A stretch of DNA of 64,000 nt from an uncultured bacterium (GCA_963977445.1 CAXBPH010000001.1:16709-80708); one strand, 5' to 3'. Shown: positions 20,838 through 48,063, counted from the stretch's first letter. Numbers and translations: made by a program. Notes: generated by a model not told the origin, from the letters alone.

Positions 20838-23636
20838 ATGAATCTTCTCGGAAAATTCACCTTGGCCCTCCTCGCTTGCGGTCTGGCCCCGCTGCTGCTC
20901 GCCACGCTGTTTACCCACACCTTCACGAAGCGCGCCCTCGAAAACACCGGGCGTCAGGCGCAGGAAGCCCTCGAAACCAAGGCCAAGGATAATGTCACGT
21001 CGCTGGTCCGTGCGAAGAGTGAACATCTCGCCACCTTTGTTCGCGGCATTAACAATGAGACCCAAATCCTCAGCCGCACCGGTCGTCTCGGATTCCTCCT
21101 TGAGAGCAATACCTATTACACCTTCGGTAAAGACTCCGGGCTCGTGGAAGACCTTGAAGAAGGGCGGGCCCACTTAAAGGCACTCTACGACGAGAAACTG
21201 TTTTCACCAAATTTCCCCAGCACGGCCACGGTCAATACCTTGTATGCCCACATTGACAGCCTCGATGAAAACGCCATTGCCGCCCAGCTTCGCTATGTAT
21301 TCCCCCCCGAGCCCGGTGCCCCCCTGCGCCCCCCCCCGGGAAACGCCACCCCCTATGAAGACATCCACAGTCAGTTGGATATCTTCTGGCCTTCCGCCAT
21401 GGCCCACCTGGGCTACCGCGACGTGCTACTGGTCGATGGAGAGCGTGGGGATGTTGTCTATTCGGCCATAGGGGGTGTCGACTTTGGTGCCTCCTTTAAG
21501 GAAGGTCCCCTCGCCGACTCCATCGCCGCCAGGGCCTATCGGCGGGTATGGGAAAGCGGCAATGACCAACTCGTTTTCGAGGATGTCGCCCCCTATCTTC
21601 CCATGAAAAACGCGCCGGTTTTTGTCGTCGGCGCGCCCGTTCACATCCAGGGAAAACGCACCGGCGTTGCCCTGTTCATCCTGGGCCTCGATCGATTCGA
21701 TACCGTGCTGAATACGCGGGAACCCCTGGAGGGCGACAGCACCATGTACCTCGTGGGCCCGGACTATCGGCCCCGCTCCAGAATCGATTCGCTCATAAGC
21801 CACCCCGTAGATGCAGGCAAAGAAGTGGACCTCAGTCGACTCGACATCGAGCCCGCCCGCATCGTGTTTCATCTGGGCGAAATGGGGAGCGGTGTATACA
21901 CCGGCCCTTCCGGACAAGAGGCCCTCATCGCCTATGCCCCCATCGATGTGCTGGGCGTCACCTGGGCCCTCATCGCTCAGGTAGATACGGAAGTCGCCTT
22001 CAAGGCCGTCCGTGGCATGGAATCTTCTTCAAAATTTTTCATGAATCGCATCCTCTATATCGGCGACTTCATGGTCATCGCGGCCATTGTCATTTTGTGC
22101 TTTGTGGCAGACTATCTGGCCAAACCCATCGTTCGCCCCCTGCGCTCCACCGTCGCGATTCTAAAAAGAATGGTCCAGGGGGAAGACGCCCTCAATCAGC
22201 GGCTCGTCGTCCGCGGAAAAGACGAAGTCGCCGAGCTGGCCAGTGCGTTCAACCAGTTCATGAACAAGCTCCAACAACTCTACAGTTCCCTCGAAAATGA
22301 GATTAACAGCCGAAAAGCGGCCCAGGAAGAAGTGGAACGAAGCCAGCAGTATTACAAGGCACTAATTGAACATGCGCCCGACGTTATCGTCGTATTCGAT
22401 GATTCCAATCACCTGCTCTTTGTGAGTCCCTCCTTCGAACGAACCTTTGGATACACCACCAACGAAGCGCTGAACATTGACCTATCCCAATGGATACATC
22501 CCGACGACATGGAGGCCATCGCCAAAATCTCCCAGGAGGCACACGAAAACCCCGGTGCTCCCGTCCGTTCTGAATATCGCGTAAAACACAAAGATGGGCA
22601 TTGGGTTTACGTCGCCACCGTCGGCACCAACCACACGGAAGACACGTCGATTGCGGGTGTCGTGGTAAATATGCGCGATATCACCCGGCGCAAAGAGGCA
22701 GACCGTATCCTCCGCGAATATAGCGCCACCCTGGAGCGCGATGTGACGCAACGCACCATCGAATTGCAGCAAAACCGCGATGAACTCGCCCATACCCTGG
22801 AAGAACTGCGCAATGCCCAGGACCAATTGGTCCTCAACGAAAAAATGGCCTCGCTGGGGGCCCTTACCGCGGGCATCGCCCATGAAATTAAAAACCCCCT
22901 TAATTTCGTTACAAATTTTGCCGAGCTGACCGCCGAGCTTGCGGAAGAGCTCGCTACGGAAATGGAAGGCCCCTTGTCCCTGGTTGAGCCGGATGTTCGC
23001 GAAAACCTGCTCGACCTCCTGAAAGACATTCGTCTGAACAGCGAAAAAATAGAAGAACATGGAAAGCGGGCCGATAACATCGTAAAATCCATGCTGCTCC
23101 ATTCCCGGGGCAAAAAGGACGCACGACAACCCACCGACGTGAACGCCCTTCTGGAGGAATATGTGCAGCTTTCCTACCACGGCATGCGGGCGCTGGACAG
23201 CACCTTCAACATCGAACTCGACGTGAATCTGGCCCCTGAATTCCCCCTCCTCGATGTCGTCCCCCAGGATCTTGCCCGGGTGTTCCTGAACATCCTGAAC
23301 AACGGCTGCTATGCCGCAAACCAGCGCAAGAAAAAAGAGGACGGTGACTTTCAGCCCAAGCTGACCGTTTCCACAGAAATTGCGGGTGACCAGGCAATCA
23401 TCCGCATCAGAGATAACGGCGACGGCATGCCCCAGGAAACCCTTGAAAAAATATTCACGCCCTTCTTTACCACGAAACCGGCCGGAGCGGGCACGGGGCT
23501 GGGACTTTCCATCAGCTACGACATCGTGGTCCAGGAACATCACGGTGAACTCCACGTCGATTCGGAACCGGGGAGCCACACAGAGTTTCAGATTATGCTG
23601 CCCGTGCTGTCGACAAAGCAGGAGAAGAGTACATGA
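20838..23636 (+). CDS. sensor histidine kinase with large periplasmic (Cache-like) domain, HAMP, PAS, HisKA, HATPase_c
   Basis: N-terminal TM plus ~390-aa extracytoplasmic region. Second TM ILYIGDFMVIAAIVILCFVADYL. HAMP, coiled coil, PAS (YYKALIEHAPDVIVVFD). H-box MASLGALTAGIAHEIKNPLNFV. G-boxes IRDNGDGMPQETLEKIFTPFFTTK, GTGLGLSISYDIV. Confidence 0.8.
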   Translation: MNLLGKFTLALLACGLAPLLLATLFTHTFTKRALENTGRQAQEALETKAKDNVTSLVRAKSEHLATFVRGINNETQILSRTGRLGFLLESNTYYTFGKDSGLVEDLEEGRAHLKALYDEKLFSPNFPSTATVNTLYAHIDSLDENAIAAQLRYVFPPEPGAPLRPPPGNATPYEDIHSQLDIFWPSAMAHLGYRDVLLVDGERGDVVYSAIGGVDFGASFKEGPLADSIAARAYRRVWESGNDQLVFEDVAPYLPMKNAPVFVVGAPVHIQGKRTGVALFILGLDRFDTVLNTREPLEGDSTMYLVGPDYRPRSRIDSLISHPVDAGKEVDLSRLDIEPARIVFHLGEMGSGVYTGPSGQEALIAYAPIDVLGVTWALIAQVDTEVAFKAVRGMESSSKFFMNRILYIGDFMVIAAIVILCFVADYLAKPIVRPLRSTVAILKRMVQGEDALNQRLVVRGKDEVAELASAFNQFMNKLQQLYSSLENEINSRKAAQEEVERSQQYYKALIEHAPDVIVVFDDSNHLLFVSPSFERTFGYTTNEALNIDLSQWIHPDDMEAIAKISQEAHENPGAPVRSEYRVKHKDGHWVYVATVGTNHTEDTSIAGVVVNMRDITRRKEADRILREYSATLERDVTQRTIELQQNRDELAHTLEELRNAQDQLVLNEKMASLGALTAGIAHEIKNPLNFVTNFAELTAELAEELATEMEGPLSLVEPDVRENLLDLLKDIRLNSEKIEEHGKRADNIVKSMLLHSRGKKDARQPTDVNALLEEYVQLSYHGMRALDSTFNIELDVNLAPEFPLLDVVPQDLARVFLNILNNGCYAANQRKKKEDGDFQPKLTVSTEIAGDQAIIRIRDNGDGMPQETLEKIFTPFFTTKPAGAGTGLGLSISYDIVVQEHHGELHVDSEPGSHTEFQIMLPVLSTKQEKST

Positions 23637-24016
23637 TGCTAATCATGGTGGTAGACGACGAGACCGACATTCAACTCCTTTTTGAACAACAATTTCGTAA
23701 AGAGATCCGCAACGACGAGCTCAAATTTCATTTTGCCTTCAGCGGCGACGAGGCCCTGAAAACGCTCCAGGGTGAACTCGGAACCGACCTGGTATTAATC
23801 CTATCCGACGTGAATATGCCCGACATGAGTGGCCTCGACCTCCTTCGGTGTATCCGACAGGATCGCACCGACTTGCCGGTATTCATGATAACTGCGTATG
23901 ATGACGAAGGTACCTACCAGGAAGCGATGGAACGTGGTGCCAACGACTACATCGCAAAACCCATTGATTTTCACGCCCTGAAGCAGAAAATAATCGCCAT
24001 AAGGAATAGCGCGTGA
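23633..24016 (+). CDS. single-domain response regulator (CheY-like receiver)
   Basis: 127 aa, MVVDDETDIQLLF...LILSDVNMPDMSGLDLL... Overlaps the kinase stop by 4 nt (operonic). Confidence 0.8.
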   Translation: MMLIMVVDDETDIQLLFEQQFRKEIRNDELKFHFAFSGDEALKTLQGELGTDLVLILSDVNMPDMSGLDLLRCIRQDRTDLPVFMITAYDDEGTYQEAMERGANDYIAKPIDFHALKQKIIAIRNSA

Positions 24017-25203
24017 CCACCGCAACCCTTACACCCCTCCGCCTGCTGATTGTGGACGACGAGCCCGATCTGGAAACCCTCTTTCGTCAGAAATTTCGAA
24101 AGCAAATCAAACAGGGTGACTTCCACGTAAAATTCGCCTCCAACGGAAAAGAAGCCCTGGAGACAATCGACGCAAGCAACGAAATCGATATCATCCTCAC
24201 GGATATCAATATGCCGATCATGGACGGCCTCACCCTCCTCGCGCGACTTGCGGAACGGGACGAGCTCTTCAAGGCCGTCGTCATTTCCGCCTACGGCGAT
24301 ATGGACAACATTCGCACCGCCATGAATCGGGGGGCCTTCGACTTCATCACCAAGCCCATCGATTTCATCGATCTCGAAATCACGCTGGAGAAAACCGCAA
24401 CCGAAGTATTCAAGCTCAGGGCCGGCCAGGATGCGACCCGGCGGCTGGTTGAAGTGGACCATGAATTGGATGTGGCGGCACGCATCCAGGAATCTATCCT
24501 GCCCAAGACCTTCCCGCCCTTCCCCAATCGGTCCGAGTTGGAAATCTTTGCGGCCATGACCCCGGCAAAACAGGTTGGGGGTGATTTCTATGATTTTTTC
24601 TTCATCGACGACCACCACCTCGCCTTCGTAATCGGCGACGTCTCTGGGAAGGGCGTCCCCGCTGCCCTCTTCATGGCCGTCTGTCGCACCCTGATCAAAG
24701 CGACGGCGCTACACGAACACGCCCCGGACGAATGCCTGAATCACGTAAATCGCCTGCTCTATGCCGACAACGCTTCTGATTTGTTCGTCACCGTGTTCTA
24801 TGCCGTGCTCGATACGCGGACCGGCGAGGTTTCCTACAGCAATGCCGGCCACAACACCCCTTATTGGGTGCGCAACAATGGCACCGCACCGGAAGCGCTG
24901 CTGAATCAGGGGGGGCTCGTGCTCGGCGTCATGGAAAATGTCACCTACGTCCGAACTTCACTCCAGCTCGGCGTCGGTGAATGTTTATTCCTCTATACCG
25001 ACGGCGTCACCGAAGCCATGGATCAGGACAACGCCCTCTTCTGTGATGACCGCCTGATCGAACACCTCAATCAAGGCAGCGGAAGCTCACTGAAGGATAT
25101 GACCGCGTGTGTCGTAGAAGGACTGCACGCCTTCACAAGAAATCACCCCCAGCACGACGATATCACCATGCTGGCCGTTCGCTATAACGGCACGGAGACC
25201 TGA
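24013..25203 (+). CDS. response regulator fused to PP2C-type (SpoIIE/RsbU-like) serine phosphatase
   Basis: N-terminal REC (LLIVDDEPDLETLF...ILTDINMPIMDGL) plus C-terminal PP2C/SpoIIE domain (GGDFYDFFFIDDHHLAFVIGDVSGKGVPAALFMAV...LYTDGVTEA). 4-nt overlap with the upstream receiver. Confidence 0.8.
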   Translation: MTTATLTPLRLLIVDDEPDLETLFRQKFRKQIKQGDFHVKFASNGKEALETIDASNEIDIILTDINMPIMDGLTLLARLAERDELFKAVVISAYGDMDNIRTAMNRGAFDFITKPIDFIDLEITLEKTATEVFKLRAGQDATRRLVEVDHELDVAARIQESILPKTFPPFPNRSELEIFAAMTPAKQVGGDFYDFFFIDDHHLAFVIGDVSGKGVPAALFMAVCRTLIKATALHEHAPDECLNHVNRLLYADNASDLFVTVFYAVLDTRTGEVSYSNAGHNTPYWVRNNGTAPEALLNQGGLVLGVMENVTYVRTSLQLGVGECLFLYTDGVTEAMDQDNALFCDDRLIEHLNQGSGSSLKDMTACVVEGLHAFTRNHPQHDDITMLAVRYNGTET

Positions 25204-25217: not shown

Positions 25218-26015
25218 TCAGGCGATAGCTTCCTGGGGAAAAGGCATTTGCCCAGGCGCCTTCGGGCGCATACCGCTCACAATGAGCCCGGGACGGCCAA
25301 CACTCTGGCCGCTCAACTGGACATTCTCGGGGTCGCGAAAACCACAACGTACCAGCCGGCGAACCTTGTCCGTCTGGTTTATGTAGCTGCCGTGGACCGT
25401 GAAGATGTTGAAGATCACAATATCCCCCCGTCGGGCAGGCACCGCCACCGTATCCTCAAGCCGATAGTCATCGGTCGAAAGATGGGGCGTGCAGGGGCCC
25501 TCGGGCGTTTCGGTGATATGGGGCAGGTAACCCGGCTTGTGGCTCCCCGCCAGAAATCGAATTTCGCCATTTTCGTGGCAGGTATCATCCAAATGAACCA
25601 ATACATCGATATAGCGGCCATCAGTATGTTCGTAAAAGGCGTTATCCTGGTGGAGAGGAAAGGGGTGGCCCGTTTCCGGGGGCTTCATGTGTAGTGTCGT
25701 GTGATGGAGCTCCACATTGGGGCCCAGTAAGTCGGACATGGCGCCCGTCAATCGGGGGCTCAACATGGCCCGGCTCCAGGCCTCGGAATAGAAGTGAAGG
25801 TCGTGCAGGTGCGTGAGCTTCGACTTTTCCGACGTAGCTGCGTCCATATAGGCATTCCGCCAGGGCCCCGTCCATCCCATGTCGGTCTGGGCCCAATCCG
25901 TCAACAGGGTTTCAAGCTGCCCGTCCATGGCACCGATCTCCTCGGCGGAGAACACCTGTGGGATATGAAGATACCCTTGTTCCTGGTAAAATTTGCACTG
26001 TGCTTCGGTCAACAT
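25218..26015 (-). CDS. phytanoyl-CoA dioxygenase (PhyH) family Fe(II)/2OG oxygenase
   Basis: MLTEAQCKFYQEQGYLHIPQVFSAEEI N-terminus and H..D...H triad context (HQDNAFYEH...TVHGS). The supplied ORF extends to 26099; an internal ATG at 26015 matches the family N-terminus. Confidence 0.65.
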   Translation of the reverse strand: MLTEAQCKFYQEQGYLHIPQVFSAEEIGAMDGQLETLLTDWAQTDMGWTGPWRNAYMDAATSEKSKLTHLHDLHFYSEAWSRAMLSPRLTGAMSDLLGPNVELHHTTLHMKPPETGHPFPLHQDNAFYEHTDGRYIDVLVHLDDTCHENGEIRFLAGSHKPGYLPHITETPEGPCTPHLSTDDYRLEDTVAVPARRGDIVIFNIFTVHGSYINQTDKVRRLVRCGFRDPENVQLSGQSVGRPGLIVSGMRPKAPGQMPFPQEAIA

Positions 26016-26187: not shown

Positions 26188-26640
26188 ATGGCGGAATCCG
26201 TCCCACAGAATTACGACAACCATACCGTAATCCCGAAATCATTCCTGATAGTCGTCGTGCTTTTTCTGGCCGCTGCCATTCTGGCAACAGTTGGTCTGGT
26301 AAAAACGGGCACGGTTACAGGCACCTGCTGCATCGGGTCTGCGGTATTGATTCACGCACTTTCGGCCATCTTTGGCCTTTTTATCCTGCGAGGTTATGCC
26401 GTCAAACTCCAGGATCGCATCATCCGTACGGAAATGCGTCTCCGCCTGACGGCCATCCTTCCCGATGAACTGGCCCTGGCCGCCCAAAACCTCACTGTAA
26501 AGCAACTGATAGGCCTCCGTTTTGCCTCCGATGAAGAATTGCCCGATCTAACCCGGCAGGTTCTCGACGAGAAAATCGAAAAAGCGGATGCCATCAAAAA
26601 ACTTGTCAAAGACTGGCAAGCCGACAACGATCGCGTTTAA
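26188..26640 (+). CDS. hypothetical membrane protein (first gene of the glycan-export operon)
   Basis: MAESVPQNYDNHTV... preceded by aagga. Two TM helices, then an amphipathic C-terminal region. No family recognised. The ORF could extend to 26059. Confidence 0.4.
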   Translation: MAESVPQNYDNHTVIPKSFLIVVVLFLAAAILATVGLVKTGTVTGTCCIGSAVLIHALSAIFGLFILRGYAVKLQDRIIRTEMRLRLTAILPDELALAAQNLTVKQLIGLRFASDEELPDLTRQVLDEKIEKADAIKKLVKDWQADNDRV

Positions 26641-26654
26641 GAGAACTCCCTACC

Positions 26655-27674
26655 ATGCCCAATCAACCTGCCCGACGTAAACCAAAGCAATTTACCGGCG
26701 TTCCGGCCCACAAGCGTGATCTCGCGCTGGCAATAAAGTGGCACAACCTCATCGAATTTCAGGATGAGCGCGGCAAGCCCTTTCGACGCTTCTACAAATT
26801 GGAAACCCTGACCAGCGCCATCGAAAAGATGGTCAAGGAACAGGACCGCTTCCTCACGCCTGTACTCCAGCAGACCCTCGGTACCGGTAAACTGACCAGT
26901 ATGAATATCGAACTGGTCGGAGAAGACGCCCTTCGCTTCATCTTCCACGCACGCGCCTCCAACGCGCTGAAGAAGCGCGTAACTTTGCGCCTGGTCGTCG
27001 CCAAGAATGAAGAAGAAGCCACCCGGCGGGTTGCCACCGAGTTTAAACACCTCTCTGCACTGGCCGAGCGAATTCCCGAGCACATGACCGTGCCCTTGCG
27101 TTCGGGAGGGATTTTCATGCCCGACCGCTATCGCCGTAAAGAACACCATCGGGATATCCAGGCGTATATCACCACGGCCCCCAATGGCTATGAGCCCCTG
27201 GGCGTTCATCGCAACGAGCAGTTCATGTCCCTCGGCGCCGCCCCCCACACGTTTACCAAAAAAGAGACCGAAGCCCTTAAACAGGCTATGGTCACCGTCA
27301 TCGCCAGTGCTTTCAACCCCATCACCCGTGATGGATTGGACACGCACCAGATTGATGACACCACCTTTCAGGTATTCCGCCCCAGCCGGGGCCTTCCCAA
27401 GCTGAAGGTATTCAACTGCGTCCATATGCAGCCCCGTCTGACCCCGCCCCGTCTGCTGGGCTTTCTCCTGACCGATTGCTGGGAAAACCGGGGTGTACAG
27501 TGCCCCCTGGCTCCCGAAGATCCCAACGTGTTTTTTAAGGGTCTTGTCGACGCCGTGGGAAAAGATACCGCGAAGCAATGGGTCGCTCAGTTTGCGCCCC
27601 TGGCCGCCGCCGATAAGATTAAGGCACCCAAGGATGGCTACGTCGAGGAACTCGCGGAAGTCGCTGCCGGGTAA
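26655..27674 (+). CDS. hypothetical protein (339 aa, unknown family)
   Basis: Same-strand ORF 14 nt after the previous gene and 42 nt before Wzm. Balanced amino-acid composition, versus the Gly-rich antisense ORF 26637..27713. No recognisable motif. Confidence 0.4.
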   Translation: MPNQPARRKPKQFTGVPAHKRDLALAIKWHNLIEFQDERGKPFRRFYKLETLTSAIEKMVKEQDRFLTPVLQQTLGTGKLTSMNIELVGEDALRFIFHARASNALKKRVTLRLVVAKNEEEATRRVATEFKHLSALAERIPEHMTVPLRSGGIFMPDRYRRKEHHRDIQAYITTAPNGYEPLGVHRNEQFMSLGAAPHTFTKKETEALKQAMVTVIASAFNPITRDGLDTHQIDDTTFQVFRPSRGLPKLKVFNCVHMQPRLTPPRLLGFLLTDCWENRGVQCPLAPEDPNVFFKGLVDAVGKDTAKQWVAQFAPLAAADKIKAPKDGYVEELAEVAAG

Positions 27675-27716
27675 GGTTGCGTTGAAGCCCGTCCGCACGG
27701 GTGCTACCATCACGCC

Positions 27717-28583
27717 ATGGCAACTCTACGACATGCAGGTTGGGCCCACATGCCCCCCCTTCGGCTACTGGGTGATCTCATCGCATCCCGGGAACTGCTT
27801 CTCGATCTGGTGCGGAAAGATCTCCGGGTGCGCTATCGCTATGCCGCCCTCGGATTTCTCTGGGCCGTGCTGGAACCGCTCGCCTATATGGTGGTGCTCA
27901 CCTTCATTTTTGAGCGCATTCTCGCCCCGAAAACCGGGGCGACCATGTTTGGACCCGACATACCCTTTGCGGCGGGTCTTTTGTGCGGCCTGGTCTTCTG
28001 GCAGTTCACGACCCAGGCCATCAGTGCCGCCACGGCGTCCCTGCTGGACAATCAGCACCTCATAAAAAAGGTCGCTTTCACCCGGGAGGTCGTCCCGCTG
28101 GCAGCCATGGGCTATCCGCTCATTTCGCTATTCGTGGGCGTGACCGTGCTCATTCTGGTCCATCTCGTCCTCGGCGGGAGCCTGGGTCTGGCGGTGCTTT
28201 GGATGCTCCCCCTCTTTCTCCTGCAACTCGCCTTCACCGTAGGGGTAGGCCTCTTCACGGCCGCCCTCAATGTCCGCTTTCGCGATATAGGCTATATGGT
28301 CAGTGTGGCCCTCGTCCTCGGATTCTATGGGACCCCCGTATTTTATGATCTCGACTGGGTGCTCTCGGCGGCACAGAATGGCCATGTTCCCCACCTCGTC
28401 GTGCAGGCCTATCTGGCGAACCCCATGGCGGAGCTGTTGGAAGCCTATCGGCAGGCACTCCTCGAAGGTCGCCGTCCCGATGGATGGCTCTTTCTCTGGC
28501 CCATGATCGTGGCCACCATCGCACTACTGGTCGGTGTAATCACCTTCCGGCGCAGCGCCCCCACCCTGTCGGACTACCTCTGA
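27717..28583 (+). CDS. ABC-2 type polysaccharide/O-antigen export permease (Wzm/KpsM/TagG family)
   Basis: LRVRYRYAALGFLWAVLEPLAYMVVL signature of ABC-2 exporters. 6 TM helices. Confidence 0.8.
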   Translation: MATLRHAGWAHMPPLRLLGDLIASRELLLDLVRKDLRVRYRYAALGFLWAVLEPLAYMVVLTFIFERILAPKTGATMFGPDIPFAAGLLCGLVFWQFTTQAISAATASLLDNQHLIKKVAFTREVVPLAAMGYPLISLFVGVTVLILVHLVLGGSLGLAVLWMLPLFLLQLAFTVGVGLFTAALNVRFRDIGYMVSVALVLGFYGTPVFYDLDWVLSAAQNGHVPHLVVQAYLANPMAELLEAYRQALLEGRRPDGWLFLWPMIVATIALLVGVITFRRSAPTLSDYL

Positions 28584-30661
28584 TGGTGGTCATTGAAGCC
28601 AGCGATATCACCAAGACCTATCCCACCCAGGGTGGCAAGCGGGCCTTACTGGGCCGAGGCGGCATTGGAACGTTCTTTGCAACGAAAAAGGCGTCGGACG
28701 CGGCCCTCGCCCCCCTTTCCCTGACCGTCCATGCCGGGGAGGCCCTGGGTATAATCGGGCGCAACGGCTCCGGCAAAAGCACTTTACTCAAAATAATCGC
28801 CGGCGTCACCGCACCCACCAGCGGAACCCTCAACGTCAATGGACGGGTCGCCAGCCTCCTCGAATTGGGCGCGGGCTTCCACCCCATGTTGACGGGTCGG
28901 GAAAATGTCTATCTCAACGCAGGCCTACTCGGGATGCGCCATGCCCAGGTCGACGCCTGCTTTGATGACATCGTTGAATTTGCCGAGCTCGCCGAGGCCA
29001 TCGATCACACCGTGGACACCTACAGCAGCGGCATGTTTGTCCGCCTCGCTTTTTCCGTGGCCATCCATACCAATCCCGACGTCTTCCTCGTCGACGAAGT
29101 ACTGGCCGTGGGCGATGAGTCCTTCCAGCGAAAGTGCCGGGCCCGCATTCTGGCCCTGAAGGCCGCAGGCAAGACCATCCTCTTCGTTTCGCACGATCTG
29201 GGAAGCATTCAGGCCCTGTGTGATCGGGTGTTGCTGCTGGATCGGGGAACGGCCCTCTCCCGGGGCAACGCCCAGGACACCATCGATTTTTATCTCCGCC
29301 AGATTGGTGAAACGAAAGGTATCGGCCATCTGGTCCATAACGATACCGAGGCCATTTTCAATCATGGGCGTATCGCCCTTTTCCACCGTCAGCGAGAACT
29401 AACGGCCCCCCTGGGCATTAAAGTTCAGTTTTACAGCATGGGCACCTATCACGAGTCCACCGATGCCCTGTGGCATGTCTCAGAGACAGCCCCAACGACC
29501 CTCACAGGTTCCGGCACCTTCCCGCGACTCCCCGTTACGCTGCACATGACCTGCACGCTGGACGACACCGGTCTGGTCGTGACGGTTTCGTGGGAAAACA
29601 CCCAGGCCCTCAACCTGAGCTATGTGGCCCTCCAGGTGTTTGCGGTAAGCTCCTATGCGCAGTGGCATGCCGGAAGCCGAAGCGGTGCGTTCCCACCAAT
29701 CGGCCCGGAGAATCACCAATGGAGCACGGTTCTGACCCTTCCACCTTCGGAAGGCACCTGTGAACTGGCGGGAGATGGGGATTCCGACCTCCCCCCACTC
29801 TGTTTCTCCCTGGAGGGGGACACGTCGGGTGCCCGATTCCAACTGGACAACTCGGATTACATGGGGCAGGCCCGCATTATCCACCTGACCGAAGCCATAC
29901 CCACGGGTGCCAACCCCCTGCCACCAGAGAAACGGCACCTCGGGACCCTGACCATGGACCCCACCCAAGACCCCCAGGGACTGGAAAAACTTCGGACCCA
30001 GCGGCGCGACGCGCAACGGCTGGATCTCGCCAGCATCAGCGCAATACTCCATGATGGACAGGTACAGCTCCTTGGCGATGGCATCCCCTTGACCGACGGG
30101 CTCCATTGTCATCTTCAGCTTCGCACAGGCGATCTCTGGGTGCTGGGCCACGACTTCTCCTGGGCAGTGACAGCAAAACAAGACGACACCCTCACGGCCA
30201 CCGGACGGGTCCAGCGTATCCCCTGCGCCATCGCATGGACCGTAAGCGCCATCGCAGCAGACACGCTGGAGTTACAACTCGAATTAACGGCGGACCAGGA
30301 ATTGGAACTGACCGAATACAACCTGTCTCTCTGTCTGGCGACTGCCTATGACGAATGGGCCACCCCATCGGAATCGGGCCACTTCGGAAACGCGACAAAA
30401 ACAGGTCGTGGCTGGACTCATCTCAATAGCGCCTACACCGAGGGCACGTCCATTGTGGCCCAGGGAAAGGACGTACCCACACTAACCCTGACGGCCTCCG
30501 AGCATCTCGGAAACGCCTACCCCACGGCCATACGCACCGACACGGATCAGGATCTACGGGTACTCCAACTCCTGTGCAACCCGGGACAACAGCGGGCCTT
30601 CGCACTTGGGACAGGAGCCCATACGTTATTTCGCGCCACATTGCACGTTGGAAGCCAATAG
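28583..30661 (+). CDS. ABC transporter ATP-binding protein (Wzt/TagH-like) with ~440-aa C-terminal extension
   Basis: ATGA start/stop overlap with Wzm (ATG at 28583). Walker A GRNGSGKST, signature YSSGMFVRLAFS, Walker B VFLVDEVLAVGDE. The long C-terminal domain is unlike the ~150-aa Wzt carbohydrate-binding domain. The supplied ORF starts at 28484. Confidence 0.8.
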   Translation: MVVIEASDITKTYPTQGGKRALLGRGGIGTFFATKKASDAALAPLSLTVHAGEALGIIGRNGSGKSTLLKIIAGVTAPTSGTLNVNGRVASLLELGAGFHPMLTGRENVYLNAGLLGMRHAQVDACFDDIVEFAELAEAIDHTVDTYSSGMFVRLAFSVAIHTNPDVFLVDEVLAVGDESFQRKCRARILALKAAGKTILFVSHDLGSIQALCDRVLLLDRGTALSRGNAQDTIDFYLRQIGETKGIGHLVHNDTEAIFNHGRIALFHRQRELTAPLGIKVQFYSMGTYHESTDALWHVSETAPTTLTGSGTFPRLPVTLHMTCTLDDTGLVVTVSWENTQALNLSYVALQVFAVSSYAQWHAGSRSGAFPPIGPENHQWSTVLTLPPSEGTCELAGDGDSDLPPLCFSLEGDTSGARFQLDNSDYMGQARIIHLTEAIPTGANPLPPEKRHLGTLTMDPTQDPQGLEKLRTQRRDAQRLDLASISAILHDGQVQLLGDGIPLTDGLHCHLQLRTGDLWVLGHDFSWAVTAKQDDTLTATGRVQRIPCAIAWTVSAIAADTLELQLELTADQELELTEYNLSLCLATAYDEWATPSESGHFGNATKTGRGWTHLNSAYTEGTSIVAQGKDVPTLTLTASEHLGNAYPTAIRTDTDQDLRVLQLLCNPGQQRAFALGTGAHTLFRATLHVGSQ

Positions 30662-30666
30662 TTCCT

Positions 30667-31632
30667 ATGCCCCTTTCTCCCGCCACTATCGCCGTATCTA
30701 TTGTGATTCCCGCCTACAATCAGGCGACGCTCCTCGTGCGGCTGCTGGATTCCTTCCTTGCAATGGGCAATCAGCCGCTCTGGGAAGTCATCATCGTAGA
30801 TGATGCTTCAACCGATGATACCCAGTCGCAGGTGGCGGACTGGCTGGAAAATCACGGCGACGTGAATGGCCGCTACCTCCGCCAGGAACACAATCAAGGG
30901 CCCGGTGCCGCACGAAACCGCGGACTGGAGGTCGCCAAAGCCCCACTCGTGGCCTTCACCGACACCGATTGTGTCGTGAAACCCGGTTGGCTGGCCGCAC
31001 TGGTGGCACCCCTCGACGGAAACAATACGATTGTCGGTGTCGGCGGTGCGGTGGTCCCCTGGAATCCGGATAATCGCTTCGCCCGCTACAACACGGTGAA
31101 CAACACCCTCCAGCCAATCCACGCCCCCGACTATCCCATCCCCTACCTGGTCACGTGCAACTGCGTCTACCGTCGCAACGCGTTGCAGGCTGCAGGGGGA
31201 TTCCCCGACGACATCCCCCGACCCGGTGGTGAGGATGTGGCCGCGAGCATCGCCCTCTACAAGCAAGGCTATCGCTTCGCCTTCGCACCCGACGCCGTGG
31301 TCTGTCACGACTACCGCGACACCTGGCGAAGCTTCATGCGGACCTGGACGAACTATGGATTCGGTTGCGGCCTCGTGGCCCAGCGTATGCTCACCCCCGA
31401 GGAGCGCAACCCCGAGCTGGGCAAATGGGACGGTGACAACTACTGGGGCGTCCAGGCTGTCCGCCCGACCGTTACCGGGGTCCGGTCCCTGATAAAAGAC
31501 CTGCGATGGCATTGGGGCCGATGTCTTGGCCTCAAAACGGCCCCGAAGCGTATACCCGCGCTGATGTTGTTGCGCGTAATCGAAAGGCTGTGCTACTTTC
31601 GCGGCTGGAAACTAGCGCAACGGCAGACCTGA
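30667..31632 (+). CDS. glycosyltransferase family 2
   Basis: VSIVIPAYNQATLL...VIIVDDASTDDT...FTDTDCV (DXD) ... GGEDVA. Internal ATG at 30667 chosen; the ORF extends to 30574. Confidence 0.75.
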   Translation: MPLSPATIAVSIVIPAYNQATLLVRLLDSFLAMGNQPLWEVIIVDDASTDDTQSQVADWLENHGDVNGRYLRQEHNQGPGAARNRGLEVAKAPLVAFTDTDCVVKPGWLAALVAPLDGNNTIVGVGGAVVPWNPDNRFARYNTVNNTLQPIHAPDYPIPYLVTCNCVYRRNALQAAGGFPDDIPRPGGEDVAASIALYKQGYRFAFAPDAVVCHDYRDTWRSFMRTWTNYGFGCGLVAQRMLTPEERNPELGKWDGDNYWGVQAVRPTVTGVRSLIKDLRWHWGRCLGLKTAPKRIPALMLLRVIERLCYFRGWKLAQRQT

Positions 31633-31785
31633 GACGATAGGCGAAATAGTCCTGACCAAGGTCACGCAATTTTCGAACTTCCTACGTAACGCCTCCTGAA
31701 TAACCCAACCCTTTTCCCTTCCAAGCACGGACTGGGGTAGAATCATGCCCGATGTGCACCACAACCTAGCTTCAGGCCTGATCCT

Positions 31786-34134
31786 ATGACGAACACCCCA
31801 CCCATCAAAGCGCCCGCCCTCCGATCCGTTCGTGGATTGGTGCTGGCAGTCAATGAACATGGGGAGCGGACCGACCCGACCACAATCCGCCAGTGGCTCC
31901 GTCTTTCGACCGAAAAGTTCAAGGCCCGGAAGGTGGACCTCTATCTGCCCGAGGCGGATGAGCGCGCCCTGCTACCCTTGTTGGAAGAGGCCGCCCATCT
32001 GGGTCTCCGCCTTTCCTTGCGGTGCACCCCGGTCACCCCCCCGGCAATACTACCCACCCTCGCCGAAGCGGGGCTGTTGGACCTGGCACTCGACGTGAGT
32101 GAGTTGGACGCCCATGTGCTACGGGGCTGGATGGACCAGGCAACATTCGTCGGGCTACCCCTACGGCTCTTCATCACGGCAGAGGCCATCTCGGCGTCGC
32201 CAGACGATTCTTTGATGGACCTGCTTTCCGAAGCCGCGTCCGTACAGGTCTCCTTGGTGGATTCACTCACTGATGTCAGCACCACCGCCGCCCTGCCACC
32301 GGACACGATCGAACACATTATCTCCCTGATTCGGGGACTGAGAGACCGGGGTACCGAAATCCACTGCCTACAGATTCCCTATTGCCAGCTTCCCGAAGAC
32401 CTGTGGCCCACAGTCACCCAACATGCCCAGTGGCTAACCCACCACCAGTACTATCGGCCCGCCGCCCTGGAATTCGTACGAAAACTCAAGAGACTCACGC
32501 CCGCGCGCATGCGCCAGGCCGTAGAAATCGCTCTGGGCGAAGGGGCTTCCTTCCACAACCGTATCGACGATGCCGTGCTGCCCTGGGTGCTGGAGCATCC
32601 GTGGTATTTCTACTGGATTTGGTTCCTGCACAAGCTGACGCGCCGCCTGCCCCTGCGCCGCAAACAGCCCAGCCCTTTCCCAGAGGACCTCACCGAGTTA
32701 GAGGCCCTGGTAGAAGCACACCGCACCGAACAGCGAAAGAACTTGGGCCCGATTTGCGCCCAATGTCGATTTCATCCCATCTGCGACCACCACACGGAGC
32801 TCCTCAAGCAGCGCCTGCCGGGTCGAGCCATCGTAGCCCACCCGGGGGAGCCCCTGTATGACCCCCACGCCTTTCTGGACCCTGCCGTCACCTGGTATGA
32901 CCCTATAGACACCCAGCGGGTCCAGCAGTGGTCTCAGAGGGCCCATCGGGTCGAAGAAGCCCAACAACGTATCCAACGGGAACGACCTACCCGGGAAATT
33001 CCCGCAGAGAGCTATGAGATTCAGGATCACAAGACCCATCGTATGCCCGCCTCGGTACGCTGGTTCTCCTTTTCCACCGCCGAACTGCAGAGCACCGTAC
33101 TCGCCCGCCTGTCACCGCCATTCACAATAAGTGTCACCGTTGGGGGCGGAATGGCGGCGCTCATGGGCTTTGCCTTTGGTCGGCACGCCCGCCTCATGTG
33201 CCCCATGACCGCCTTCAGCCACAAACTGACCCTCCATGTCGACCGTGATGGTTACTACGTCCTCCTGCGGGACGGTGAGCCCGTGATGCCCACGGCATTT
33301 GAAGACGCCGATCTGGTTCCCGAGTATCTGGGCACCGTCGTGGAGCCCCGTATCGCCCTGACCAACATCGACGGGCAAATCGTCACCCAGACGGTGCTCC
33401 TTTGGGAGGAAAAACCCGCGACCACGCCCCCGCCGCCATGCAGGCACAGCGTGGTCATCGTTTGCACGAAGTATGCCCGTCGACTCCAGGCGGCCTTGCT
33501 GGCGCTGGCCCATCAAGAGGGACTGGAGGGCAAGGGACTCGAAGTCCTTGTCGGCTATGTACCCGGCATCGATGCGACCGACGACGTCTTGGACAGTCTG
33601 GCCGCCCAATGCCCCGAATTGACGATAATCCGCATGCCTTTTACCCCGCAGCACGACCGCGCAAAGGGCTTTATCATCAACGAATGTATCGATTTGGCCC
33701 GGGGAGCTTGGATTACCCTCCTGGATGCGGATATCATGCTGCCGCCCGATTATTTTGCACGACTGGATCGTGAACCCGAGGACACCCGATTTGTGGTACC
33801 GGATGGGCGTCATATGTTGTCCCCCGAAACGACCGCACGTGTGCTCCTGGGACTTTCCCATCCCTGGGCGGACTATGACGCCTTGCTCGAAAGTGACGGC
33901 GAATACCGTCACCACGAGTCGGAAGGAGTTCCCCCCGGCTTTTGCCAGAGTGTGCGACGCGCCGTGCTTGAAAAGATTCGATACCAGGAATTGGACCATT
34001 TTGAAGGGTCCGACTGGTGGTTCAGCGCCCAAGTCATAGAATGCTTCGGGAAAGAAACCCGACTGGAGGGCCTCCGCGTGCTCCATCTGGACCATGGTGG
34101 CAGCCAGTGGTATGGTACGGACAGGCACTATTAG
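31786..34134 (+). CDS. large hypothetical protein with C-terminal GT2-like (DxD) glycosyltransferase domain and N-terminal unknown domain
   Basis: C-terminal ~230 aa: SVVIVCTKYARRLQAALLAL...ITLLDADIMLPPDYF (GT-A fold-like). N-terminal ~500 aa without known motifs, except a CAQCRFHPICDHH cysteine cluster. Confidence 0.5.
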   Translation: MTNTPPIKAPALRSVRGLVLAVNEHGERTDPTTIRQWLRLSTEKFKARKVDLYLPEADERALLPLLEEAAHLGLRLSLRCTPVTPPAILPTLAEAGLLDLALDVSELDAHVLRGWMDQATFVGLPLRLFITAEAISASPDDSLMDLLSEAASVQVSLVDSLTDVSTTAALPPDTIEHIISLIRGLRDRGTEIHCLQIPYCQLPEDLWPTVTQHAQWLTHHQYYRPAALEFVRKLKRLTPARMRQAVEIALGEGASFHNRIDDAVLPWVLEHPWYFYWIWFLHKLTRRLPLRRKQPSPFPEDLTELEALVEAHRTEQRKNLGPICAQCRFHPICDHHTELLKQRLPGRAIVAHPGEPLYDPHAFLDPAVTWYDPIDTQRVQQWSQRAHRVEEAQQRIQRERPTREIPAESYEIQDHKTHRMPASVRWFSFSTAELQSTVLARLSPPFTISVTVGGGMAALMGFAFGRHARLMCPMTAFSHKLTLHVDRDGYYVLLRDGEPVMPTAFEDADLVPEYLGTVVEPRIALTNIDGQIVTQTVLLWEEKPATTPPPPCRHSVVIVCTKYARRLQAALLALAHQEGLEGKGLEVLVGYVPGIDATDDVLDSLAAQCPELTIIRMPFTPQHDRAKGFIINECIDLARGAWITLLDADIMLPPDYFARLDREPEDTRFVVPDGRHMLSPETTARVLLGLSHPWADYDALLESDGEYRHHESEGVPPGFCQSVRRAVLEKIRYQELDHFEGSDWWFSAQVIECFGKETRLEGLRVLHLDHGGSQWYGTDRHY

Positions 34135-34190
34135 AAATTGTACCGCTGGTTGGATTTTGTCCGCCAGTCTCATAACTCAAGGAATCACGA

Positions 34191-35447
34191 TTGCGTATCA
34201 GTCTGGTCGATTTACTCTTCTCCTGGCCCCCCAATGGCGGGGCCGATGTCGATCTGTATAATCTCGCAACGGGCCTGACCCGCGCCGGTCACGATGTACA
34301 GGTGGTCGTCGTAAACGACGCCAACTCCTGGGAGCGGGGCGCCATCCACAGCGGACATTTCTCCTTTTCTCTCCTGGGCGTGTCGGGTACGGGGCGCAAC
34401 TTCCATCGGAAGCGGCTGCCTGCCCGTATTCGCGAAGCAGTGGACATGTGGAACCCCGACGTGGTCTTTCTGGGCGATGGCTTCCTCATGAAACCCTACG
34501 TAGGGCTCGCCCTCGCAGACTATCCACTCGTCGTCCGTTACTATGCCTACGAAATGGCCTGTCTCCGCGATATACTCCAATTTAAGGACGGCGCGCCCTG
34601 TCCCAACCACTATCTAAAGACGCCTGGCGTCTGCCGCGCCTGTGCCTTTGAGCATCTCGGCCCGGAGATTAAGTCGGGGCGGCACCACGCGTGGACCCAG
34701 GAATACCTCGCCGCACAGGCCTATGACCCGGGCTATCGAAACGTCGCAGAGGAATTTCTCGGGCGCATTCACAGTGCCATCGTTTACAACGCGCGGATGG
34801 AGGAAAACCTGAAGCACCACTGCGCCGATGTGTATGTGGTGCCCGGCGGTGTGGACAGCCAACGATTCACCTTTGAACCACAGGCCCCAAAATCGCCCAA
34901 AGAATCCAAGCGCATCTTAATGGCGGGCCGGGCAGAAGATCCCATGAAGGGGCTTGATGTCCTCCTGGAAGCGGGCGAGCGCCTCTATCAACAGCGGCGG
35001 GACTTTATGATTCACGCCACCGTGCCCGAAGAAACGCCCATGCCCTCTTTCGCCCTGGCCATTGGATGGCAATCCCACACCTCCCTGGTTGAATACTACC
35101 GGCAGGCCGATATCTGCGTGGTGCCCAGCCGCTGGGAAGAACCCTTTGGCCTCGTCGCCCTGGAGGCCATGGCGACCGGACGTCCCGTATGTGCCAGTCG
35201 TGTAGGTGGCCTGCAGGACATCGTGGTTCACAAAGAAACGGGTTTTCTCTTCGATTCCGGTGATGCCGCCGAACTGGCCAAACAGCTGGACGTCCTGCTG
35301 GACAACCCCAATTTGCGTCAACGCATGGGCATCGCAGCCCACCGACGGGTCTATGCGGAATACCGTTGGCCCCACATCGTGGAAGAGTACTACATCCCCA
35401 TTCTGGAAGCGGCCTGCGAAAGCGGTACGCGGATGGTGGCTCCATGA
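34191..35447 (+). CDS. glycosyltransferase family 4 (GT-B, retaining)
   Basis: EPFGLVALEAMATGRPVCASRVGGLQDIV motif. TTG start with aagga RBS. Confidence 0.8.
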   Translation: MRISLVDLLFSWPPNGGADVDLYNLATGLTRAGHDVQVVVVNDANSWERGAIHSGHFSFSLLGVSGTGRNFHRKRLPARIREAVDMWNPDVVFLGDGFLMKPYVGLALADYPLVVRYYAYEMACLRDILQFKDGAPCPNHYLKTPGVCRACAFEHLGPEIKSGRHHAWTQEYLAAQAYDPGYRNVAEEFLGRIHSAIVYNARMEENLKHHCADVYVVPGGVDSQRFTFEPQAPKSPKESKRILMAGRAEDPMKGLDVLLEAGERLYQQRRDFMIHATVPEETPMPSFALAIGWQSHTSLVEYYRQADICVVPSRWEEPFGLVALEAMATGRPVCASRVGGLQDIVVHKETGFLFDSGDAAELAKQLDVLLDNPNLRQRMGIAAHRRVYAEYRWPHIVEEYYIPILEAACESGTRMVAP

Positions 35448-35890
35448 GCGCTCCCCGCATCTGTGCCTTCTACAGCCGAGGCCCCCACTACGTCCGCCTG
35501 CTTCGGTGCCTCCGGGAAAACTACCCCGATGCCACCCTGGTCGCGGCCATCCCCACCAGTTTTCCCTACCATGCCATTGAAGGGCTGGTGGACGAGACAC
35601 TGCGGCTGGACGACGGAACGAAACCCAAGCGTCTGGCGCAAAATTGGACTACCCTGGGTCAGATTCGTCGCGCGAAGTGCTCTCATCTGGTCATCATGTT
35701 CGACAGCCCCCGGCTCAACCTGCTCAGCGCACTCTCGGGCGCAAGCGTCCGGCGGTGTTTCACCGTCGATGGACGCTTCTACAAACTCAAGCAACCGTTG
35801 ATAACCGTATTCCTGAACTATTTGCGACAGCGGATGACGGGAATGTGGTATTACGCCCGGGCCGGGTGGGGCACCCGCAAATCGCAATAG
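35444..35890 (+). CDS. hypothetical protein (148 aa), translationally coupled to upstream GT4
   Basis: ATGA overlap at 35444-35447 (MSAPRICAFYS...). No family recognised. Confidence 0.35.
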   Translation: MSAPRICAFYSRGPHYVRLLRCLRENYPDATLVAAIPTSFPYHAIEGLVDETLRLDDGTKPKRLAQNWTTLGQIRRAKCSHLVIMFDSPRLNLLSALSGASVRRCFTVDGRFYKLKQPLITVFLNYLRQRMTGMWYYARAGWGTRKSQ

Positions 35891-35905: not shown

Positions 35906-36163
35906 TTAGCCCAGCTGCGCCATGGGAATGGCTTCGTCGATAAGCATGACCGGAATGTCTTCACGGATAATGTAGAGATAGGCACCATCCGCGCGAAGCA
36001 ATCCGCCTTCAATAGGCTGCTCAACATCTTCTTCGCCACGATTCTTCAGGGTCTTGGAGGCGATGGCTTCGTTAATACGATCAATCGTGGCCTGCTCCAC
36101 AAGGCTGACAGCCGTCTTATTTTCAGGACATACCAGTATCTTCAACAGTTCTTCGTCGACCAT
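35906..36163 (-). CDS. Trm112/UPF0434-family small protein
   Basis: MVDEELLKILVCPENKTAVSL...LLRADGAYLYIIREDIPVMLIDEAIP matches the Trm112p-like fold (LxILVCP...IP.ML). Internal ATG at 36163 chosen. Confidence 0.6.
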   Translation of the reverse strand: MVDEELLKILVCPENKTAVSLVEQATIDRINEAIASKTLKNRGEEDVEQPIEGGLLRADGAYLYIIREDIPVMLIDEAIPMAQLG

Positions 36164-36387
36164 CGGATGGATAGCTCCATAGTTACTCAAAGTGTCTCGA
36201 CCGCCGTAATTGCGGCCCATTTGCCCGGGTTTCACGTATCTGCAATACGGCACACACGGACCTTCGTCGCCAAAGGACGGGAGGGCACCATTGTACGTGA
36301 TTCTCCCCACAACACGCTACCTCCACGGCGCAGTTGACTCCCCGCCATCGGGCTTGTAGGCTAAAGTTCAAACGGAGATACAGACTC

Positions 36388-48032: not shown

Positions 48033-48063
48033 ATCCAACCCAGGTATCGGACAGGCCAGTTAC

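Follow-up and report, generated by a model that had tools for sequence, protein, structure and literature searches.

The cluster at positions 26188-35890 on the + strand of the window (the whole 64,000-nt stretch of DNA analyzed, from an uncultured bacterium) is a sugar-polymer assembly and export locus that follows the familiar ABC-transporter plan and carries four lineage-restricted, uncharacterized parts. It probably represents a Hydrogenedentota-specific version of the Wzm/Wzt ABC-transporter-dependent pathway for a lipid-linked cell-surface glycan, and is best read as a glycan pathway in which the recognition and capping parts are peculiar to the lineage. The original prediction of a non-canonical surface-glycan export system was borne out as far as an ABC-transporter-dependent cluster with non-standard components is concerned; the substrate class is one that we infer. 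None of the uncharacterized proteins was assigned to a common LPS housekeeping family.

Layout of the cluster and its host

ORF calls yielded an uninterrupted run of + strand ORFs over 26188-35890, as had been predicted, which is bordered on the left by PhyH (minus strand, 25218-26006) and on the right by a 134-aa ORF (minus strand, 35906-36310). The run comprises eight genes and not the ten initially announced, and the list that accompanied that count also named eight:

26188..26640, + strand: gene 1, DUF6526 membrane protein, 150 aa (PF20136)
26655..27674, + strand: gene 2, soluble protein with predicted protein-kinase-like fold, 339 aa (undescribed family)
27717..28583 (alternative start 27750), + strand: gene 3, Wzm, ABC-2 type permease (PF01061)
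28583..30661, + strand: gene 4, Wzt, 692 aa (ABC_tran, TagH/Wzt-type NCBIfam matches)
30667..31632, + strand: gene 5, soluble GT2 (GT-A), 321 aa (PF00535)
31633..31785, + strand: intergenic gap of 153 nt, longer than any other here, containing a -10-like motif
31786..34134, + strand: gene 6, four-part protein, 782 aa (radical-SAM/SPASM-like, helical, beta-sandwich, GT2)
34191..35447, + strand: gene 7, GT4 (GT-B), 418 aa, TTG start at 34191 (PF00534, PF13692)
35444..35890, + strand: gene 8, 148 aa, ATGA overlap with the GT4 stop

The distances between successive genes were 14, 42, -1, 5, 153, 56 and -4 nt, and the expected range of 0-150 nt was essentially right. Two junctions overlap, Wzm/Wzt by 1 nt and GT4/gene 8 by 4 nt. 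Both had been described as ATGA overlaps, which is accurate for GT4/gene 8 (35444-35447), whereas the Wzm/Wzt junction reads CTC-TGA-TG, where stop and start share a single base (TGATG) and the ATG of Wzt lies at 28583.

The eight genes may be co-transcribed. An internal promoter for genes 6-8 may lie in the 153-nt gap, as judged from the -10-like 'GGGTAGAATCA' (TAGAAT), which is also present in L013, the closest relative; across all relatives the gap 5' of gene 6 spans 124-234 nt. This motif was not called in a consensus promoter scan, and scanning for promoters and terminators gave counts at or below the shuffled expectation and nothing informative within the cluster. Rfam matched no family over 24-38 kb, including the 153-nt gap.

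The host belongs to the Hydrogenedentota and not, as first proposed, to the Planctomycetota. A phosphate-selective porin is encoded within the window, which is consistent with a diderm envelope with a surface glycan.

The exporter, the glycosyltransferases and the lineage-restricted proteins

Pfam and NCBIfam agreed on the predicted families of Wzm, Wzt, GT2 and GT4, for Wzt with respect to its nucleotide-binding domain. Wzm contains multiple hydrophobic segments and matched PF01061 (ABC2_membrane) above the cut-off (E 3e-13), while the NCBIfam models for galactan Wzm and KpsM matched below their cut-offs. The start of Wzm might be at 27750 rather than at 27717; the public gene call has 277 aa, and in alignments the homologs set in only at residue 15-20.

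The nucleotide-binding domain of Wzt comprises about residues 1-240 (ABC_tran, E 4e-20), and TagH and Wzt-type NCBIfam matches cover residues 20-240. It is followed by a C-terminal extension of 450 aa, which the original prediction did not flag and which is arguably the most unusual single feature of the locus. The extension consists of two homologous domains of ~210 aa in tandem and is an internal duplication, since hhalign aligned its two halves over 163 columns with a probability of 97.4% (E 1.1e-11). It was found in only 14 clusters; in 13 of these it is joined to ABC_tran, and the remaining one is a fragment of 351 aa without a Pfam match; the two clusters with a taxon name are both from Hydrogenedentes. 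No PDB or Pfam match was obtained for the extension, nor any sequence similarity to solved Wzt carbohydrate-binding domains, which usually comprise ~150 aa. By analogy with Wzt proteins of known function, it would serve in substrate recognition.

The statement that the first two genes have no recognizable family holds for gene 2, which belongs to no Pfam family, and fails for gene 1. The latter matched PF20136 (DUF6526) with an E-value of 2.1e-35 and 122.3 bits (cut-off 23.7) over profile positions 3-145 of 145. Hydropathy indicated two N-terminal hydrophobic segments in gene 1, at about residues 11-44 and 43-72, and the C-terminus is charged and helical. No papers on DUF6526 were found in a literature search. 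All close relatives have gene 1 directly 5' of gene 2, and it is absent beside distant gene-2 homologs; like gene 2, it may have a role in the glycan pathway.

Few sequences belong to the gene 2 family (129 clusters out of 1.84 billion representatives), and Pfam matched none of 69 members of the wider family. A confident structural model of gene 2 displays a bilobal protein-kinase-like fold with a Lys/Glu pair. Its best structural matches include the small-molecule kinases APH, MTR kinase and NahK, with a Foldseek TM of only about 0.33; compared to these as well as to atypical Rio and Bud32, identity was 8-14% with no match at the sequence level. In the model K117 is positioned at the end of strand 108-116 and E129 within helix 121-139. 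Position 117 is occupied by K or R in all 69 members and E129 is kept in 55 of 69, and by their placement the two would fit the ATP-anchoring beta3 Lys and alphaC Glu of kinases. Canonical kinase catalytic-loop and DFG motifs are not present in the family alignment. Where members of the kinase-like superfamily carry the metal-binding DFG Asp, this family has A/G/N-Cys-Arg and no family-wide conserved acidic residue, and the Asp/Asn pattern of the catalytic loop is replaced by D229-x4-D/E234 and N254-C-x-H257 in the clade of gene 2 and by GD...R in the wider family, the 'GD237' of which is TT in the clade of gene 2. Sequence and profile searches of gene 2 against solved structures returned nothing significant, and a match to tubulin acetyltransferase (E 0.04) was treated as noise.

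Gene 5 matched PF00535 (E 2.7e-35) and gene 7 matched PF00534 (E 6e-31) and PF13692 (E 4e-26). Gene 5 has no hydrophobic segment, and hydropathy revealed no transmembrane segment in gene 7 or in the GT2 domain of gene 6. A defence-system reading of gene 7 was rejected, as the 'GT4-conflict' Pfam match was weaker than those of generic GT4 models. The GT4 co-occurs with genes 6 and 8 in L010, L013 and L016-L018, and is present in two copies in L011. Gene 8 had no Pfam or NCBIfam match and is kept beside GT4 even in the distant L011, where identity is 40%; a function coupled to this GT4 may be envisaged. When the gene 8 profile was compared with the PDB, the second-best and sole glycan-related match was heptosyltransferase II WaaF (N-domain), a weak lead that at E 0.27 falls short of significance.

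The 782-aa product of gene 6 had been described as a fused GT. Its GT2 part is indeed present, and the fusion can be specified as a GT2 preceded by a beta-sandwich and by a radical-SAM/SPASM-like domain devoid of the cluster-binding motif. A partial TIM barrel of radical-SAM type that lacks CX3CX2C takes up residues 16-195; it is followed by a helical region (residues 204-400) associated with a SPASM-like Cys motif (C200, C324, C327, C333; CX2CX5C-type), a beta-sandwich (residues 403-541) and a GT-A (GT2) domain with D647-x-D649 (residues 554-770), the C-terminal GT2 being supported by Pfam and NCBIfam. CX3CX2C, which in radical-SAM enzymes binds the SAM-cleaving [4Fe-4S] cluster, was found in the barrel region of none of 51 aligned members, and one match at residue 319 is coincidental. 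Sequence and profile searches of the N-domain against solved structures gave nothing significant. It is homologous (E 1e-15) to authentic SPASM-class radical-SAM enzymes that carry CNQRCYFC and are encoded beside gene-6 homologs. Such a partner was found neither in the window nor in the close-relative loci. With the 'pseudo-SAM/SPASM' model TIGR04347 only the partner enzyme scored, at 61-63 bits against a cut-off of 525.

These similarities bear on the idea that the locus glycosylates and exports a peptide, a RiPP-like product or a small-molecule cofactor, with Wzm/Wzt as a generic ABC-2 exporter. The best NCBIfam match of gene 5 is the mycofactocin glycosyltransferase MftF, the N-domain of gene 6 resembles the peptide-modifying SPASM enzyme PqqE, the radical-SAM partner scores with HxsC, PqqE and MftC-type maturases, and SunS-type peptide S-glycosyltransferases are among the structural matches of the GT-A domain. 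However, the MftF match covers the GT2 core region alone and at 170 bits is far under its cut-off of 280, the partner scores equally with the sugar- or cofactor-modifying BlsE and AhbD, and no precursor peptide gene was found among the eight ORFs (the screen took in ORFs of 80 aa and above). Moreover, the nucleotide-binding domain of Wzt is of the TagH/Wzt polymer-exporter type, and three GTs with an ABC-2 exporter are a classical polymer arrangement. We consider a non-polysaccharide substrate very improbable.

Conservation of the cluster and the place of genes 1 and 2

At least four further genomes (L013, L016, L017 and L018) carry genes 1-8 in this arrangement, with protein identities of 51-85%, and in L010 the six genes from Wzm through gene 8 are found in order at a contig end. 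Since this order is kept in relatives and subsets stay together in rearranged distant loci, the grouping of the eight genes is more than chance. The cluster is also modular, as genes 1-5 were found without genes 6-8 in two genomes. Among the distant loci, which link these genes independently, L024 and L025 encode Wzm, the tandem-domain Wzt (only 42% identical), a radical-SAM gene and a gene-6 homolog, and L011 a gene-8 homolog and two GT4 genes, followed in divergent orientation by a radical-SAM gene and a gene-6 homolog. The deepest-conserved linkage is that of Wzm-Wzt with the 782-aa family and not with genes 1-2.

This distribution raises the question whether genes 1-2 are outside the glycan pathway and merely neighbours by recent ancestry, in which case the unit would start at Wzm and gene 2 would be a salvage or signalling kinase that phosphorylates a free sugar or small molecule, or a pseudokinase. 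Genes 1-2 are tied to Wzm/Wzt within one clade only, in which the unrelated flanking genes (HK, RR, RR-PP2C and PhyH) are syntenic as well, and they are missing from the distant Wzm-Wzt-radical-SAM-gene-6 loci of the L024/L025 type. In L020, L021 and L023 the genes that come after a distant gene-2 homolog encode beta-helix/GH141-like proteins and GH106 or GH95 hydrolases, in L008 and L019 the homolog stands alone, and small-molecule kinases are among the best structural matches of gene 2. The ~750-aa ORFs 3' of distant gene-2 homologs were considered as gene-6 relatives and turned out to be the beta-helix/GH141-like proteins. On the other hand, spacing on the common strand is tight, with 14 nt separating genes 1 and 2 and 42-75 nt from gene 2 to Wzm, and all contexts of gene 2 are carbohydrate-related and thereby compatible with a glycan-directed role. 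In addition, the gene-2 homolog of L007 (37%) lies directly 5' of two gene-6 paralogs, the adjacent gene-6 homolog being 36% identical, and 3' of a PMT_2/TPR protein, which is an independent link to glycosylation genes. Exclusion of genes 1-2 from the pathway is a possibility that we regard as rather doubtful.

Proposed pathway and comparison with known systems

In the favoured glycan pathway, three soluble or peripheral glycosyltransferases, namely the GT2 that gene 5 encodes, the GT2 domain within gene 6 and the GT4, would build the glycan at the cytoplasmic face of the inner membrane, and export by Wzm/Wzt would follow assembly. In known systems the C-terminal domain of Wzt recognizes a chain-terminal cap and a kinase-fold terminator is used (PMC9445017, PMC3482155). 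The tandem extension is most likely the counterpart of the carbohydrate-binding domain, which would read a cap or terminal residue and gate export, and gene 2, in a role analogous to that of the kinase terminator WbdD, is the best candidate for an enzyme or adaptor that makes or reads this chain feature. In gene 6 the domain without a cluster motif probably binds substrate or docks a partner for the GT2 domain, and would descend from a genuine radical-SAM enzyme modifying sugars or glycans that is still encoded beside it in other Hydrogenedentota. Genes 6-8 would constitute an accessory module gained or lost by the core genes 1-5.

Neither a ligase nor an outer-membrane export component is present within the cluster, and no initiating polyprenyl-phosphate sugar-phosphate transferase of the WecA/WbaP type was detected among the eight genes and 20 other ORFs of the window. 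In known Wzm/Wzt systems the initiating transferase is often encoded elsewhere. As the cluster contains none of these three components, a lipid-linked polysaccharide is assumed as substrate. Further points that speak against the favoured pathway are the Wzt extension, which by its sequence appears unlike solved carbohydrate-binding domains, the lack of canonical kinase residues in gene 2, the linkage of genes 1-2 to Wzm/Wzt in a single clade, the position of distant gene-2 homologs beside glycoside hydrolases or unrelated genes, and the gap before gene 6. A literature search yielded nothing specific on Hydrogenedentota glycan clusters.

The locus could also be an ordinary O-antigen or exopolysaccharide ABC cluster in which the uncharacterized parts are divergent forms of standard components (terminator, carbohydrate-binding domain, accessory GT domains) and which holds no new chemistry. 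Wzm, GT2, GT4 and the nucleotide-binding domain of Wzt are all generic, a kinase-fold terminator alongside the C-terminal domain of Wzt is known, and O-antigen clusters are notoriously variable. We nevertheless judge this unlikely: the Wzt extension has three times the normal length of such a domain, is internally duplicated, has no sequence match to solved domains and is confined to 14 clusters, gene 2 is outside every Pfam family and lacks canonical kinase motifs, and a fusion of a radical-SAM-derived domain with GT2, together with an authentic radical-SAM partner in relatives, is undescribed as an O-antigen module in the family libraries searched. The most far-reaching version of the favoured pathway, in which a new duplicated Wzt recognition domain reads a chain feature made by gene 2 as a new atypical kinase-fold enzyme, and in which the glycan contains, ancestrally or in sister lineages, a radical-SAM-modified sugar introduced by the partner of the pseudo-radical-SAM-GT2 fusion, is put forward tentatively, with the balance of probability against it.

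The phylum Hydrogenedentota is widespread but uncultured, with a cell envelope that has hardly been studied, and the locus offers four rare families to test: a kinase-fold family outside Pfam, a duplicated Wzt domain, a small protein coupled to GT4 and a cluster-less radical-SAM/SPASM-GT2 fusion that has an authentic radical-SAM partner in relatives. Should the Wzt extension and gene 2 be a recognition/capping pair, this would extend what is known of how ABC transporters choose completed polysaccharides, with a new class of Wzt recognition domain and, within the kinase-like superfamily, a new glycan-directed branch. Unusual sugar chemistry is suggested by the radical-SAM link, and the pair of radical-SAM and pseudo-radical-SAM glycosyltransferase would be the first in an O-antigen-type pathway. 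If the Wzt extension and gene 2 do not form a recognition/capping pair, the surface-glycan locus would be lineage-specific yet conventional.

Among characterized exporters, TagGH and the mycobacterial galactan Wzm/Wzt gave the best NCBIfam matches (TagH 179, galactan Wzt 153 and Wzm 70 bits), far under the equivalog cut-offs of 538, 400 and 380, respectively, and unlike in these systems the envelope here is probably diderm, given the porin. The N-terminus of gene 6 shares the partial TIM barrel and the CX2CX5C-type Cys motif with PqqE, AhbD, HxsC and BlsE, and differs from radical SAM/SPASM enzymes by the missing CX3CX2C in the barrel and the fusion to a beta-sandwich and GT2. Like E. coli O9a WbdD/Wzt and Aquifex aeolicus WzmWzt, the cluster has overlapping genes for an ABC-2 permease and a Wzt-type ATPase, a C-terminal extension of Wzt, cytoplasmic GT-A and GT-B enzymes and a kinase-fold protein (PMC9445017, PMC3482155). 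It differs from them in the Wzt extension, a tandem repeat instead of one domain, in gene 2, which in contrast to WbdD has no methyltransferase domain, C-terminal coiled-coil ruler or canonical catalytic and DFG motifs, and in the missing initiating transferase, and it has in addition the DUF6526 membrane protein and the radical-SAM-derived GT2 fusion.

Gene layout and standard components of the cluster

By ORF listing and direct reading, eight consecutive plus-strand genes were found at 26188-35890, bordered by minus-strand genes on both sides (a PhyH gene, 25218-26006, and a 134-aa ORF, 35906-36310). The ten genes announced in the title of the original prediction are therefore wrong, and its own list also names eight.

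Genes of the cluster
26188-26640, plus strand, gene 1 (DUF6526), 150 aa
26655-27674, plus strand, gene 2, 339 aa
27717-28583, plus strand, gene 3 (Wzm), 288 aa
28583-30661, plus strand, gene 4 (Wzt), 692 aa
30667-31632, plus strand, gene 5 (GT2), 321 aa
31786-34134, plus strand, gene 6, 782 aa
34191-35447, plus strand, gene 7 (GT4), 418 aa, TTG start
35444-35890, plus strand, gene 8, 148 aa

The intergenic gaps from gene 1 to gene 8 are, in order, 14, 42, -1, 5, 153, 56 and -4 nt; public gene calls start Wzm at the next ATG (27750) instead of 27717. Two junctions had been described as ATGA overlaps. This is true of GT4/gene 8, but at Wzm/Wzt the sequence is CTC TGA TGG: the stop shares one base with the Wzt ATG at 28583 (TGATG), so this overlap is not ATGA. 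A 358-aa minus-strand ORF (26637-27713) lies antisense to all of gene 2 and is longer than it. This ORF is probably an artefact of composition; it is the plus-strand gene 2 protein that has conserved homologs and a fold predicted with confidence.

Pfam and NCBIfam confirmed the families previously assigned to Wzm (ABC2_membrane), Wzt (a Wzt/TagH-type nucleotide-binding domain, residues 20-240), gene 5 (GT2), gene 7 (GT4) and the 782-aa fusion protein (GT2 domain, residues 555-731). The top NCBIfam match of gene 5 was MftF, far under its cut-off (170 versus 280 bits). Gene 1, said to have no recognisable family, belongs over its full length to Pfam DUF6526 (E 2e-35), and two hydrophobic segments lie at its N-terminus; a literature search found no mention of DUF6526. 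For gene 8, Pfam and NCBIfam searches yielded no family. Its coupling to GT4 is constant, also in the distant locus L011 (40% identity), and its family profile matched the heptosyltransferase II N-domain as second-best and sole glycan-related PDB entry (E 0.27), which may serve as a lead only.

Extended Wzt and the gene 6 fusion

Residues 241-692 of Wzt matched nothing in Pfam or PDB. When an alignment of nine orthologs was split in two, both halves of this extension proved homologous (hhalign 97.4%, E 1.1e-11, 163 columns); the extension is therefore a ~210-aa domain duplicated in tandem. Only 14 protein clusters carry the extension: 13 of them, 574-709 aa long, include ABC_tran, and the fourteenth, a fragment of 351 aa, has no match in Pfam. 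Two are taxon-named, both Hydrogenedentes.

The gene 6 family comprises ~100 clusters of full-length architecture, all named ones being Hydrogenedentota. Its AF2 model (pLDDT 85) is divided into four parts.

Parts of the gene 6 model
residues 16-195, beta/alpha partial barrel
residues 204-400, helical
residues 403-541, beta-sandwich
residues 554-770, GT-A domain

A CX3CX2C motif was present in the barrel of none of 51 family members, C200 and C324-x2-C327-x5-C333 were conserved in 43-44 of the 51, in what reads as a SPASM-like pattern, and the GT2 DXD motif (D647, D649) is invariant. In three loci of other genomes (L011, L024, L025) an authentic radical-SAM gene adjoins the gene 6 homolog. Matches in NCBIfam and PDB place its product (415-446 aa, CNQRCYFC) in the SPASM class, with all NCBIfam scores far under cut-offs. 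Because this partner matches the gene 6 family HMM (E 1e-15) over profile positions 100-381, the Cys motif included, the N-terminus of gene 6 is its degenerate paralog. No authentic radical-SAM enzyme was found in the window or in close-relative loci.

The partners (L011 8716-9963; L024 12108-13442; L025 12159-13499) form a conserved unnamed family of 57-66% mutual identity, always beside 782-aa homologs and, in L024 and L025, directly after the tandem-domain Wzt. A further Hydrogenedentota MAG (L012, 7644-12343) carries two gene 6 paralogs in tandem (785 and 780 aa), with no Wzm/Wzt within 10 kb and a PhyH gene ~4.6 kb away.

Gene 2, a kinase-fold protein

That gene 2 lacks a recognisable family was borne out, as no sequence match in Pfam, NCBIfam or PDB was obtained even by family profile; Pfam matches were found for 0 of 69 family members. 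The family is rare, with 21 clusters in a set of 5.8 billion proteins and, in a second search, 129 representatives out of 1.84 billion. An AF2 model built with 21 homologs was confident (pLDDT 87.3, pTM 0.81), and Foldseek returned kinase-fold proteins only, kinases as well as pseudokinases (E 2e-4, TM only ~0.33). K117 at the end of strand 108-116 is K or R in all 69 members, and E129 in the next helix is present in 55 of 69, which fits a beta3-Lys/alphaC-Glu pair. The C-lobe motifs are non-canonical: the DFG-equivalent position is A/G/N-Cys-Arg, and the 'GD...R' following an alphaE-like helix in the wider family is TT in the clade of the window, which conserves D229-x4-D/E234 and N254-C-x-H257 instead. 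Gene 2 is therefore termed a kinase-fold protein of uncertain activity, and not a kinase.

Apart from L007, distant gene 2 homologs either stand alone or have beta-helix/GH141-like proteins and GH106 or GH95 hydrolases downstream of them; the pairing of this family with glycan-degrading genes is recurrent. In L020 (10991-13363), L021 (10875-13187) and L023 (3487-5697) the homolog is followed by a right-handed beta-helix protein of ~740-790 aa that contains a GH141-insertion-like segment, and in two of these loci (L021, L023) the next protein is GH106-like.

Conservation of the cluster and comparison with O-antigen export

Proteins identical to those of the cluster are encoded on a 95.5-kb TARA Oceans scaffold. 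The close homologs that carry a taxon name, and 10 of the 11 genome loci including the 7.9-Mb chromosome OW818658.1, all belong to Candidatus Hydrogenedentota or Hydrogenedentales MAGs; Planctomycetota, as had been guessed, is not supported. This guess is probably explained by a PSCyt1/PSCyt2/PSD1 (DUF1549/DUF1553) protein (58821-61949) and a protein whose N-terminus has a prepilin-type motif (15677-16642), hallmarks usually tied to Planctomycetota. The sole other label is a contig binned as Nitrospiraceae (L019, JAACEL010000233.1; gene 2 homolog, 36% identity), which may reflect mis-binning or horizontal transfer.

The order of genes 1-8 is kept in four loci (L013, L016, L017, L018; protein identity 51-85%) and from Wzm through gene 8 in the contig-end locus L010 (identity within this range), while L001 and L005 hold genes 1-5 only, followed by unrelated genes. 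Since unrelated flanking genes are also conserved (upstream a histidine kinase, a response regulator, RR-PP2C and PhyH; downstream a sigma-54 activator), close-clade synteny alone is weak evidence of function, and rearranged distant loci are stronger. Wzm, tandem-domain Wzt, the radical-SAM gene and gene 6 occur together in L024 and L025; L011 holds gene 8 and two GT4 genes, divergent from the radical-SAM gene and gene 6; and in L007 a gene 2 homolog lies directly upstream of two gene 6 paralogs, adjoining a PMT_2/TPR protein. Thus the links Wzt(tandem)-gene 6 and gene 6-gene 7-gene 8 are robust, gene 2-gene 6 has one independent confirmation, and the link of gene 1 is clade-limited.

Three signalling genes with stop/start overlaps (ATGA at 23633, GTGA at 24013) occupy 20838-25203, upstream of the cluster. 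The 932-aa product is a sensor histidine kinase, the 127-aa one a response regulator of a single domain, and the 396-aa one a response regulator joined to a PP2C/SpoIIE phosphatase domain. This trio, also upstream in L001, L002, L003 and L005, could regulate the cluster or be merely syntenic. The PhyH-family Fe(II)/2-oxoglutarate dioxygenase gene (25218-26006, minus strand), divergent from gene 1, keeps its position in all close relatives. A second carbohydrate-related group lies at 46341-51071.

Second carbohydrate-related gene group
46341-48032, NodU/CmcH-type carbamoyltransferase
48013-49257, minus strand, 414-aa ORF, no family
49175-50350, GT4
50337-51071, PIG-L family deacetylase

In ABC-transporter-dependent O-antigen systems, a lipid-linked chain is built by cytoplasmic glycosyltransferases. 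The chain is then capped by a terminator, in E. coli O9a the WbdD kinase and methyltransferase (PMC3482155). The cap is recognised by the Wzt C-terminal domain, which gates export (PMC9445017). The cluster fits this plan, from which we infer that genes 5, 6 and 7 would build the glycan and Wzm/Wzt would export it, with the duplicated Wzt extension as putative recognition module and gene 2 as candidate capping enzyme or adaptor. Against these roles count the lack of an initiating transferase in the cluster, a Wzt extension that is not demonstrably a carbohydrate-binding domain, and a gene 2 protein that has neither the WbdD architecture nor canonical catalytic motifs. A porin encoded outside the cluster but within the window points to a diderm envelope. 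Taken together, this is a real, conserved and modular glycan cluster with four lineage-restricted, uncharacterised families, in which the Wzt extension, the atypical kinase-fold family and the pseudo-radical-SAM-GT2 fusion offer concrete, testable targets, and nothing found in it contradicts the standard paradigm.
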